Positions 16,360 to 23,766 of a stretch of DNA of 64,000 nt are shown in pieces; the first letter of the stretch is position 1, and the number at the start of each line of letters is the position of its first letter. The translations under genes and the position numbers were made by a program. The notes beneath the pieces are model-generated. The model was not told the origin of the DNA and ran no database searches. It was given only the letters and a program-made list of their open reading frames with translations. Location: NCBI GenBank assembly GCA_963771355.1, contig CAVYTA010000007.1:256001-320000 (forward strand). Direction: 5' to 3'. The DNA is from an uncultured Candidatus Rokubacteria bacterium (GTDB lineage Bacteria > Methylomirabilota > Methylomirabilia > Rokubacteriales > CSP1-6).

Positions 16360-16452
16360 AATTCTCGCGGGCCATTGGGGGGCGTCATGCCCGGCGGCGG
16401 AGCCTCGTCGGCGCACATCGTAGCCAACACCAATTATTCTCGACTCGAAAGG

Positions 16453-16468
16453 TGGCACGACGCCTGCT
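16453..16468 (+). promoter_or_regulatory. sigma-54 promoter
   Basis: TGGCACGACGCCTGCT: GG-N10-GC. Confidence 0.6.
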
Positions 16469-16482
16469 GTTGTTGCGCCTCC

Positions 16483-17181
16483 ATGAATGCACTACTCGCT
16501 CCCCGGACACCCGCCTCGTCTCCGCCCTCGTCTCCCGCCTTTCCCTCCGCGCCGTACGTGCGTGGCGGCGTGCTCGCTGCCGTGCGCCGACTGCGGTACG
16601 AGGTCTACTGTCTCGAGCGACGGTTCGTGGACGCCGCCACCTGCGCGGAAGGGCAGGAGAGCGACGAGTACGATCCCCACGCGGTGCACTTCGCGGCGAC
16701 CACCCCGTCGGGCTCGGTGGTGGCCACGCTCCGGCTGGTACTCGATTCGCCGCTGGGGTTTCCACTGGAAGCGCATGCGGACGGATTGATCGAGACGCGG
16801 CCGGGGACGGAGCGGACGCGCACCGGGGAGATCTCACGCCTCATCGTGGCGCCGGACTATCGCGCCGGCACCATCCGCCAGCCGCTGATGCTGTTAGGCC
16901 TGTTCCGGCACCTGTACGAGGAGTGCTGCCGGCTGGGCCTCGCCTACCTGGTGGCCGGCATGGAGGGCAGCCTCGCGCGCCTGCTCCGGCGCCTCGGCAT
17001 TCTCTTCCTGCCTCTCGGCGCCGCCATCAACTATTTTGGCGAGGTGGTGCCCTACGGCGCCACGGTGGCGTCGATGCGGCGAGGGTACGAGGAGGTCCTC
17101 GACTACGAGCGGACCTGCCTGATCGGAAGCGCCTCCCCATTCCGCTACTTCCGCGTGAGCGCGAAGGACCTTACCCGCTGA
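16483..17181 (+). CDS. PEP-CTERM/exosortase system-associated acyltransferase (GNAT/LuxI-like, N-acyl amino acid synthase type)
   Basis: LRYEVYCLE, ESDEYD, RLV..FPLE, GEISRL, MEGSLARLL, INYFG.VVPY. Confidence 0.75.
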   Translation: MNALLAPRTPASSPPSSPAFPSAPYVRGGVLAAVRRLRYEVYCLERRFVDAATCAEGQESDEYDPHAVHFAATTPSGSVVATLRLVLDSPLGFPLEAHADGLIETRPGTERTRTGEISRLIVAPDYRAGTIRQPLMLLGLFRHLYEECCRLGLAYLVAGMEGSLARLLRRLGILFLPLGAAINYFGEVVPYGATVASMRRGYEEVLDYERTCLIGSASPFRYFRVSAKDLTR

Positions 17182-20776: not shown

Positions 20777-20836
20777 CGCCATCGCTGGAAAGTCCCTCCC
20801 CGCGGGGGCACACTTGAGTCGGGAGGGAACGCCGCG

Positions 20837-21580
20837 ATGGATTTGAGGCGACGGGGACTGCTATTGGGGAGCGGACTCTTGCTGCTTGCCCCCCGCCGGG
20901 CCTGGAGCCAGGGCGCGCTCGAGCGCGAGCACGCCCCGCGGCTCGCCATGCCGATCCTGGCCGAGGATTCGGCGGCGGTGCCGCTCGAGGTCTCGGTGGA
21001 GCACCCCATGGAGCCCGATCACTTCATCCGCTCCATCGAGGTCACGCTCGACAAGGACCCCGTGCCCTGGAAGGGCAAGTTCCTCTTCACCCCCGGCAAT
21101 GGCCGCGCCTGGGCGGCCTTCACCATGCGCTCGGGCGCCGGCGGCCTGGTGCGCGCGGTGGCGGAGTGCTCGCGGCACGGGAAGTTCACCGCCACGCGCG
21201 AGGTCCGGGTGGCCGAGGGCGGCTGCGCCACCGCGGCGCCGGTGGACCGGGCCCGCATGGGGAACCCGCAGCTGCGGCTGCCCGGCTCGCTCCGGCCGGG
21301 GCAGGTCGTCGAGGTCAAGACCAAGGTGGACCACGACTCGCAGACCGGGCTCGCGCTCAAGGGTGGGAAACACGTGCGCGAGGCGCCGGAGTTCTTCATC
21401 AAGGAGATGCTCGTCTATCTCGATGCCGAGAAGATCAGCGAGTTCCAGATGGGCTCGGCCATCAGCGCCAATCCGTTGATCCGCTTCCCCCTCAAGATCA
21501 CGAGGAGCGGCACCGTCCGGGTGGTGTTCGTGAACAGCGAGGGTCAGCGCTGGGAGGCTTCCCAGCCCGTCCGTGTCTAG
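20837..21580 (+). CDS. Tat-exported SoxY-SoxZ-like fusion with a superoxide-reductase-like His4Cys motif set
   Basis: LRRRGLL signal; PILAEDSAAVP, DKDPVP and EVRVAEGGC (SoxY-like); VEVKTKVDH..TG and AISANPLIRF (SoxZ-like). Confidence 0.75.
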   Translation: MDLRRRGLLLGSGLLLLAPRRAWSQGALEREHAPRLAMPILAEDSAAVPLEVSVEHPMEPDHFIRSIEVTLDKDPVPWKGKFLFTPGNGRAWAAFTMRSGAGGLVRAVAECSRHGKFTATREVRVAEGGCATAAPVDRARMGNPQLRLPGSLRPGQVVEVKTKVDHDSQTGLALKGGKHVREAPEFFIKEMLVYLDAEKISEFQMGSAISANPLIRFPLKITRSGTVRVVFVNSEGQRWEASQPVRV

Positions 21581-22926: not shown

Positions 22927-23766
22927 ATGTTCAACCCGCTCAGCCGGCGAGAAGTGCTCCGCTTCGGCGCGTACACCACCGTTGGAGGGGTGCTCACCCC
23001 GGGGATCTCGATGGCGCAGGCCATCGTCACCGACAGCAAGGGCCTGGTCACTCGCGACGTGACGCTCACCGTCGGCGGCGTCGCCATTCCCGCCTACGAG
23101 GCGCGGCCCGAGGCGGCGGGGCGGTACCCGGTGGTCGTCGCCATCTCCGGATTCACCGGGAACAGCGAGCATCACAAGGACGTCGTGCGCCGGCTCGCCC
23201 TGGCCGGCTACTACGCGATCGCGCCGGAGCTCTACCATCGGGAAGGCGGAATGCAAGGGAAGGACTTCGCCGAGATGGGTAAGATCGCGGGCTCGGTGAC
23301 GCGCGCCCAGTACCTCGGCGATATCCGCGCCGCCGCCGACTTCGCCCGCGGGCAGTCGTGGGCCCGCGCGGACCGACTGGGTGTCACCGGCTTTTGCGGC
23401 GGCGGCGCCCTCACGCTGCACACCGCGGCGGAGTATCCTGGGGTCTCCGCGGCGGCGCCGTGGTACGGCCATGTCAAGCGGGTCTATCGGGACGCGCCCG
23501 GTGTCGACGCATTCAGCCTCATCGATCGCATCACCATGCCGGTGCTGGGCCTCTACGGGGACGCCGACCCGGGTATCCCCTCGGACGACGTGAAGCGCTT
23601 CGAGTCCGAGCTCCGGAAGCGGAACCCGAACGTCGAGTTCGTCCTCTACCCCGGCGCGCCGCATGCCTTCTTCTCGGACGACCGGCCGCAGGTCTACAAG
23701 AAGGAGGCGTCGGAGGACGCCTGGAAGCGGCTCCTCGCGTTCTTCGGCCAGCACCTTCGGGCCTGA
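22927..23766 (+). CDS. dienelactone hydrolase family protein, Tat signal
   Basis: SRREVL; GFCGGG nucleophile; HAFF. Confidence 0.88.
   Translation: MFNPLSRREVLRFGAYTTVGGVLTPGISMAQAIVTDSKGLVTRDVTLTVGGVAIPAYEARPEAAGRYPVVVAISGFTGNSEHHKDVVRRLALAGYYAIAPELYHREGGMQGKDFAEMGKIAGSVTRAQYLGDIRAAADFARGQSWARADRLGVTGFCGGGALTLHTAAEYPGVSAAAPWYGHVKRVYRDAPGVDAFSLIDRITMPVLGLYGDADPGIPSDDVKRFESELRKRNPNVEFVLYPGAPHAFFSDDRPQVYKKEASEDAWKRLLAFFGQHLRA

Follow-up and report, generated by a model that had tools for sequence, protein, structure and literature searches.

A SoxY-SoxZ fusion protein of Rokubacteria carrying the complete metal ligand set of superoxide reductase

The gene under study, found in a window of 64,000 nucleotides (the whole stretch of DNA analyzed here) from an uncultured Candidatus Rokubacteria bacterium, encodes a SoxY-SoxZ fusion protein in which the SoxY-like domain carries the complete 4His/1Cys ligand set of superoxide reductase (SOR). 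Given the export signal, the presence of both SoxYZ halves and the conservation of all five SOR ligands, the protein likely is an exported, metal-bearing sulfur carrier, and the family that it represents is real, conserved, widespread and, apparently, undescribed. The gene consists of the following parts:

20837..21580 (+): whole gene, 247 aa, comprising Tat signal, metal-site SoxY domain, linker and SoxZ-like domain (ORF translation, HMMs, model)
20821..20827 (+): Shine-Dalgarno-like GGGAGGG, 9 bases ahead of the ATG (sequence)
20837..20908 (+): twin-arginine signal peptide, residues 1-24, with R5-R6 at 20849-20854 (conservation in homologs; predicted cleavage before Q25)
20909..21226 (+): SoxY-like domain with the ligand set of SOR centre II (HMMs, PDB match, conservation, fold)
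20930-32, 21002-04, 21020-22, 21167-69 and 21176-78 (+): codons of the ligands H32, H56, H62, C111 and H114, respectively (ORF translation)
21203..21226 (+): SoxY-type carrier arm V-R-V-A-E-G-G-C130, with the Cys codon at 21224-21226 (aligned to the Thermus SoxY arm)
21227..21259 (+): linker, residues 131-141, of lower model confidence, with invariant R138 (alignment, AlphaFold2 model)
21260..21577 (+): SoxZ-like domain, with invariant H166 (21332-34) within H-D-S-Q-T-G (HMM, conservation, fold, profile alignment)

Translation of the open reading frame places R5-R6, H32, H56-P-M, H62, C111-S-R-H114-G and GGC130 where the preliminary description, which was made from the sequence alone, had put them; the carrier arm is internal in the chain rather than C-terminal. 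The GC3 of the gene (0.93) is similar to that of the neighboring genes, and a promoter and terminator scan yielded no signal above shuffled sequence at the gene. Contigs of four RNA libraries from two studies match parts of the gene near-identically, with the whole 10 kb covered about evenly by libraries that may hold DNA. Elsewhere in the window, a FeeM/GNAT-like N-acyl amino acid synthase homolog is encoded at 16375-17181 (+) and a protein of the dienelactone hydrolase family, bearing a twin-arginine signal, at 22927-23766 (+).

The proposed fusion is borne out by the Pfam models for SoxY (79.1 bits versus a cut-off of 28.4; residues 34-130) and SoxZ (64 versus 25; residues 152-242), both of which exceed their cut-offs, and by fold matches for both domains. 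Desulfoferrodox (PF01880; 42.7 versus 22.2; residues 29-116) is likewise above its cut-off, in contrast to the SOR models TIGR00332 (20.6 versus 61.9) and TIGR00320 (18.9 versus 146.9). Indeed, all six NCBIfam matches of the protein fall below their cut-offs, including the best one, TIGR04557 (quinoprotein-associated SoxYZ fusion; 106.4 versus 140), and the canonical SoxY/SoxZ models TIGR04488 (61.8 versus 125) and TIGR04490 (52.3 versus 76). In a phmmer search against the PDB, three Ignicoccus SOR entries lead (E 3.8e-8 to 1.1e-7), followed by Thermus SoxY (7.4e-7). The phmmer alignment pairs all five ligands, H32, H56, H62, C111 and H114, with His, His, His, Cys and His of Ignicoccus SOR, respectively, and Cys130 aligns with the arm Cys of Thermus SoxY.

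These residues are near-invariant in an alignment of 121 rows (the query and the best 120 of 376 homologs), with H32 kept in 119, H56 in 120, and H62, C111 and H114 in all 121, at a mean column identity of 62% in a 114-row homolog subset. The arm Cys130 is present in 120 rows and H166 in all 121. When the protein was shuffled 20,000 times, a loose H..H-x5-H..C-x2-H pattern never arose; the ligand observation is real and no product of chance. The twin-Arg signal is similarly corroborated, with R5 and R6 present in 118 of the 121 rows within the consensus S/T-R-R-x-L/F-L and Ala at position 24 in 102. One detail of the preliminary description did not hold: its matching of 'EREH' with 'EKH' of SOR is out of register, the residue preceding H32 being Glu, not Lys (R30-E31-H32).

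AlphaFold2 modeled the whole protein with a mean pLDDT of 88.8 and residues 25-131 with one of 92.8. In these predicted models, the C domain matches SoxZ (Z 14.0), and the N domain alone is equally close to SoxY and SOR, matching Paracoccus SoxY with Z 14.3 (3.6 A, 96 residues) and Ignicoccus SOR 4BRV with Z 14.2 (2.0 A, 102 of 107 residues). The top 25 structure matches of the N domain all are SoxY, SOR or SoxZ (Z 10.6-14.3), with unrelated Ig folds following at 9.1 or below; against 48,161 representatives, the top eight again belong to these three families only (Z 9.9-12.7; next 8.8). The fold superposes on SOR, and this superposition suggests that the five ligands converge in space. C111 and H114 lie at the turn ahead of the last strand (115-125) and Cys130 lies beyond the far end of this strand, which means that metal and arm probably are at opposite ends of the domain and that action of the metal on the arm of the same chain is unlikely. 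By estimate rather than measurement, about 36 A (3.3 A per residue) separate the metal ligands from Cys130, versus a reach of at most about 18 A, which renders doubtful the earlier suggestion that the protein is possibly redox-active on its own Cys arm. Judging from the topology, the arm of the fusion would instead lie close to where the SoxZ-like domain begins, a region in which the invariant H166 is expected.

Taken together, the protein would work most like SoxYZ, and it falls outside canonical SoxY, TIGR04557 and, on present tests, SOR. With the SoxYZ proteins of Paracoccus (2OXG/2OX5), Thermus (4UWQ) and Chlorobium (2NNC), it shares both folds, the Tat signal and the V-x-V-x-x-G-G-C arm, and the profile scores of the metal-site domains are higher for SoxY (181) than for SOR (100). 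Unlike canonical SoxYZ, it is a single chain instead of the products of separate soxY and soxZ genes, with a tethered arm that lacks the GGCGG end; it falls below the cut-offs of both canonical models, and carries the full 4His/1Cys site, of which H32 and H114 occur in 0 of 67 ligand-less SoxYs. The genome that encodes it lacks soxA and soxB.

A profile search of 1.84 billion representatives produced 1,363 matches, the best 150 of which include distant fusions with all ligands and stand-alone SoxYs with all ligands that end in GGC, as well as ligand-less SoxYs and quinoprotein-type fusions. Named members belong to Rokubacteria/Methylomirabilota, Tectomicrobia, Armatimonadota and Nitrospirales, and in the ESM Atlas all three Pfams coincide in automatic clusters of 193, 74 and 62 members. 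Among 53 domains with all five ligands, de-replicated at 72%, the arm Cys is present in 50, and the 3 exceptions look truncated or frameshifted. No longer fused forms were found among 7,995 candidates of 488-2000 aa, which is weak evidence. In a second fused paralog of Rokubacteria (20 loci, L045-L064), the arm Cys is kept in 20/20 but the full ligand set in 9/20, suggesting that this paralog is being stripped of its ligands while the arm Cys stays. Its genes are arranged in the order ECF sigma/anti-sigma, metallophosphoesterase, SoxA/TsdA-type cytochrome, the fusion gene itself, CcoN-like oxidase subunit, cytochrome c and CtaG, with ECF sigma found at 15, the CcoN-like subunit at 19, cytochrome c at 18 and CtaG at 13 of the 20 loci.

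For the stand-alone metal-site SoxYs, which are distant from the fusion, we analyzed the best 80 of 247 confirmed loci (L085-L164). H32 and C111 with H114 are kept in 78 of these, and 76 are complete with the arm, two being cut before it and two having Asp at 114; the search pattern required H56 and favored H62, so the counts for these two residues are circular. Their cassette, which differs from that of the fusions, encodes YeeE, a beta-propeller, the metal-site SoxY, a SoxB-like hydrolase, a SoxZ-like protein, cytochrome c, DUF302, SCO1 and a thioredoxin-like protein, in this order; soxZ-like genes aside, yeeE is found at 50, the beta-propeller at 62, the SoxB-like hydrolase at 60 and SCO1 at 24 of the 80 loci. 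At one locus (L089), there is instead a plain pair of metal-site soxY and soxZ, near soxB-like and yeeE genes. His-rich beta-propellers occur both in Rokubacteria and in the marine cassette, but the two align poorly with each other.

The present genome is 99.8% complete, and the gene is its sole SoxY, SoxZ or Desulfoferrodox match; SoxA has no match in it, and the SoxB model reaches 129 versus a cut-off of 550. The initial remark that no soxABCDX or quinoprotein dehydrogenase gene is nearby is correct for the nine neighboring ORFs scanned, among which no sox or quinoprotein genes were found, but other contigs encode a SoxC-family protein and a PQQ alcohol dehydrogenase. The former, a molybdoenzyme, is accompanied by a small cytochrome c (SorAB/SoxCD-like; genome C1:44464-46240) in this genome devoid of soxA and soxB. 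Another contig carries an fccB-fccA-tauE-FeS/NrfD-Mo enzyme cluster (L168:7958-15310). The act-moeA genes directly abut yeeE-dprA-topA, with nothing in the slot that is filled by the gene in relatives, and the gene therefore probably moved out of this slot in the present genome. The alternative complex III-like operon and moeA lie directly against a reverse yeeE at L170:6554-15336 (genome C6 ~1137550-1146340), with cysteine synthase-like and MoaD/ThiS-like genes upstream, by inspection. The window neighbors, encoding MFS, CDP-alcohol phosphatidyltransferase, CoA transferase III and dienelactone hydrolase, were considered as partners and rejected because they recur only in the closest relatives.

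To characterize the neighborhoods across the family, we compared 44 orthologous loci from 42 genomes, gathered as sets of 37 and 7 and excluding fragments (L041-L044) and duplicate genomes; genes were counted within 5.5 kb by our own ORF calling, on contigs of which several are short, so that some may be missed, and the counts come from kin that are not independent, with no statistic claimed. All five ligands and the arm Cys are present in 39 of the 44 loci. The recurrent order is act-moeA, the gene, a propeller or fccBA, yeeE (reverse), dprA and topA, with moeA near 21 loci and act (alternative complex III-like) near 19 (either near 23), yeeE near 21, fccB near 12 and tauE near 3 (any of the three near 25), and a YVTN-type beta-propeller near 9. 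The sulfur-related setting is thus borne out in relatives; no sulfur gene lies within 5.5 kb of the present copy or of the four loci closest to it, and those four have none of the counted genes nearby. Six orthologues (L011, L032, L035, L037, L038 and L040) reside in copper-handling clusters, not sulfur clusters, with genes for SCO1, DsbD-like, CopA/HMA, multicopper oxidase and CusAB-like proteins. Across 145 genomes of the same order, an orthologue (E under 1e-80) was found in 39. Among these kin genomes, fccB is not enriched in carriers (30/39 versus 80/106 non-carriers), and soxB is rarer in them (11/39 versus 56/106).

The homology of SOR, SoxY and SoxZ is well supported by profile-profile comparisons from which all metal-site SoxYs, along with nine rows with partial ligand sets or damage, were excluded. 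A profile of 27 SORs matched 67 ligand-less SoxYs at 96.5% over 89 columns, 9 canonical GGCG-type SoxYs at 96.9%, 57 SoxYs lacking even H56 at 95.3% and 30 SoxZs at 96.2%, in sets where most SoxYs were collected by likeness to the profile of the query and the SORs are skewed to one clade; SoxY matched SoxZ at 94.5-96.3%. Reversed alignments gave less than 1% and unrelated beta-sandwich controls 0.05-28%. Because links of 94-97% are obtained without the hybrids, versus at most 28% for the controls, SOR, SoxY and SoxZ likely form one superfamily. The evolutionary link between SOR and SoxY that had been suspected at the outset, which is also backed by the fold tie, is accordingly strengthened and extends to SoxZ. 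Relics in the sequences are in keeping with this: the H-x-M of SoxZ aligns with the H-P-M loop of SOR, and in the present protein the place of this loop and of SoxZ H-x-M-E-T-G is occupied by the H-D-S-Q-T-G motif around H166. Among the 67 ligand-less SoxYs, H-P-M is found in 8 and Met in 31. A canonical Sulfurovum soxY within a soxXYZA operon (L207:1315-1791) retains H-P-M-x3-N-Y as a vestige of the SOR loop.

Of 169 candidate domains, 108 entered a phylogeny (12 damaged rows having been discarded beforehand) that was built on 90 columns with the ligand columns and the arm removed; it recovered SOR (support 97/91), SoxZ (100/98), ligand-less SoxY (100/98) and the union of ligand-less and metal-site SoxY (100/96), the bootstrap being not fully settled. 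The quinoprotein-type fusions fall within the ligand-less clade and the present protein outside it. Two changes of the metal-site state suffice on this unrooted tree. With a root toward SOR, this would agree with an ancestral site that both SoxZ and canonical SoxY have lost. Approximately unbiased (AU) tests on the careful tree reject neither the metal-site SoxYs as one clade (p 0.46) nor their union with SOR in one clade (p 0.23); on a quick tree, the p values were 0.70 and 0.585, respectively. The quick tree had pictured the metal-site SoxYs as a 'basal grade', which is not established, given that the AU tests reject no alternative. We infer that the site descends from the ancestor shared by SOR, SoxY and SoxZ and that canonical SoxY lost it, as opposed to a gain in the present protein.

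The best reading of the protein, to which we assign about an even chance, is that it carries sulfane sulfur in the periplasm and has, apart from this, a redox site that probably holds iron. The protein likely is exported folded to the periplasm; its 4His/1Cys site is predicted to bind a single metal ion, which probably is iron, and its Cys130 likely would carry sulfane sulfur. Cys130 would take persulfide or polysulfide sulfur, most plausibly from the FccBA flavocytochrome c sulfide dehydrogenase (FCSD); the recipient would be a YeeE-type importer or some other enzyme of the periplasm, and neither SoxAX nor SoxB would take part. FCSD is described as producing polysulfide in the periplasm (PMC9774590), the YeeE-like SoxT as importing sulfur (PMC11582611) and SoxYZ as bearing multi-sulfane adducts (PMC5336275). 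Located at the opposite end of the Y domain, the metal site would be a separate one-electron center with an open coordinate, probably ferrous, which may bind a small anion (HS-, polysulfide, or the superoxide that arises as reduced sulfur encounters oxygen) and may be re-set by a periplasmic cytochrome c; alternative complex III genes adjoin the gene in relatives. The sulfur-carrier reading is favored by the arm Cys accompanying the metal site in 50 of the 53 de-replicated domains and outlasting the ligands in the second paralog, and by the sulfur genes near more than half of the orthologous loci. The absence of sulfur genes around the present copy and its four closest loci, the lack of fccB enrichment and the lower frequency of soxB in carriers speak against it.

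The copper clusters and the company that the second paralog keeps fit metal or oxidase assembly equally well. An assembly factor would deliver Cu or Fe, or cofactor sulfur, to periplasm-facing respiratory enzymes, such as alternative complex III, the CcoN-like oxidase or copper proteins, with the arm Cys acting as the transfer thiol. The proximity of moeA or act in 23/44 loci, the six SCO1/DsbD/CopA clusters, the CcoN-like, cytochrome c and CtaG genes around the second paralog and SCO1 in the stand-alone loci are consistent with such a role, and sequence cannot separate Fe from Cu, Zn or Ni. We nevertheless consider it unlikely: sulfur genes (yeeE, fccBA, tauE, SoxB-like, SoxA/TsdA-type cytochromes) recur across unrelated cassettes, many Rokubacteriales do without the gene, and the ligands match the SOR Fe site exactly in their order.

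Rather improbable, in our assessment, is that the protein is a periplasmic SOR, with the fused arm and SoxZ domain supplying electrons from thiols or sulfane sulfur, even though it shares the fold, the PF01880 match and all five ligands, in the same order and spacing, with centre II of SOR, neelaredoxin and desulfoferrodoxin (Ignicoccus 4BK8/4BRV, Archaeoglobus 4BFF, Pyrococcus 1DO6). In SOR, the Lys before the first His attracts superoxide. This Lys was found in 9/9 SORs of the set analyzed versus 0/63 metal-site SoxY domains, where Glu (14) is the commonest residue, followed by Leu (12) and Ala (9). Its loss is not decisive against SOR identity, since wild-type Ignicoccus SOR has Thr before the first His; together with Nanoarchaeum SOR, which lacks the Glu according to the title of a work cited in PMC9916283 (a source of general SOR background), this indicates that solved SORs tolerate the loss of either residue. 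SOR centre II is described as Fe(His)4(Cys) with the sixth site open, and Tat-exported SORs, which have the Tat signal in common with the present protein, are a described class (TAT-SOR of SORGOdb; PMC3116461). In contrast to SOR, however, the present protein adds SoxY-specific motifs, the Cys arm and the SoxZ domain, scores far below the TIGR00332 cut-off and groups with SoxY in the best tree, although grouping with SOR is not rejected. Furthermore, the nearly complete genome encodes two Fe/Mn SODs but no rubredoxin was found in it, and the annotated neighbors include no recurring genes for oxidative stress.

Two genomes of the same class encode a true TAT-SOR (E-K-K-H ... C-N-L-H-G; L171:1489-1953 (-) and L172). 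A further secreted SOR-like protein, found at 28 Rokubacteriales loci (L173-L200) and absent from the present genome, retains four His, whereas its C-x2-H is changed to E-P-T/N-H in 28/28, the axial Cys being replaced by Pro with Glu preceding; several of its genes lie amid those for two-component signaling.

It is just as improbable that the metal site is structural or a relic in an ordinary orphan SoxYZ-like thiol carrier akin to the TIGR04557 fusions (treated in PMC12997753), which likewise are exported SoxY-SoxZ fusions with an internal arm Cys and no sox cluster: whereas TIGR04557 is the best NCBIfam match, the genome holds a PQQ alcohol dehydrogenase and the SoxC-family/cytochrome pair elsewhere and the second paralog repeatedly loses ligands, the TIGR04557 score is below cut-off and the ligands are near-invariant and kept in nearly all stand-alone loci, and those fusions lack metal ligands, belong to the ligand-less clade and adjoin PQQ dehydrogenases and SoxH, as opposed to act-moeA, fccBA, yeeE or a beta-propeller in the present family, with no PQQ dehydrogenase or SoxH-like hydrolase among the recurring neighbors of the 44 loci and no SoxYZ or SoxH gene seen, by inspection, beside the PQQ enzyme of this genome.

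Automatic annotation already stacks all three Pfams on these proteins, but no description of a SoxY with an SOR site was found in the full-text literature searched, which covers few subscription papers; SoxY/SoxYZ structure papers may mention the SOR fold likeness. Among the papers found, 'SoxY' and 'desulfoferrodoxin' occur together only in PMC9324843, where they are unconnected in the text available. By term look-up, 'superoxide' and 'desulfoferrodoxin' are absent from a SoxY family survey (PMC11237559) and a Sox evolution study (PMC13500833), and 'SoxY' from the SOR database paper (PMC3116461).

SoxYZ is usually viewed as a cofactor-free carrier and SOR as an antioxidant enzyme of anaerobes, and we found no paper joining them. 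Tentatively, and with somewhat less than even confidence, the family can be regarded as a surviving ancestral form that is both a sulfur carrier and an iron redox protein within a single SOR/SoxY/SoxZ superfamily, from which canonical SoxY arose by loss of the site. Such a protein would serve a SoxAX-independent route of periplasmic sulfur oxidation, in which the Fe(His4Cys) center of the carrier itself may bind and oxidize sulfide or polysulfide, or remove the superoxide made by that chemistry. A large family with both a sulfur arm and an SOR site would connect the emergence of Sox carriers with an iron enzyme, and it supplies a usable outgroup for SoxY trees as well as small proteins for a direct test of whether an Fe(His4Cys) center can do sulfur chemistry. 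In practice, the labels 'soxY/soxZ' and 'desulfoferrodoxin' in Rokubacteria and marine MAGs often denote the present family, not the Sox pathway or SOR.
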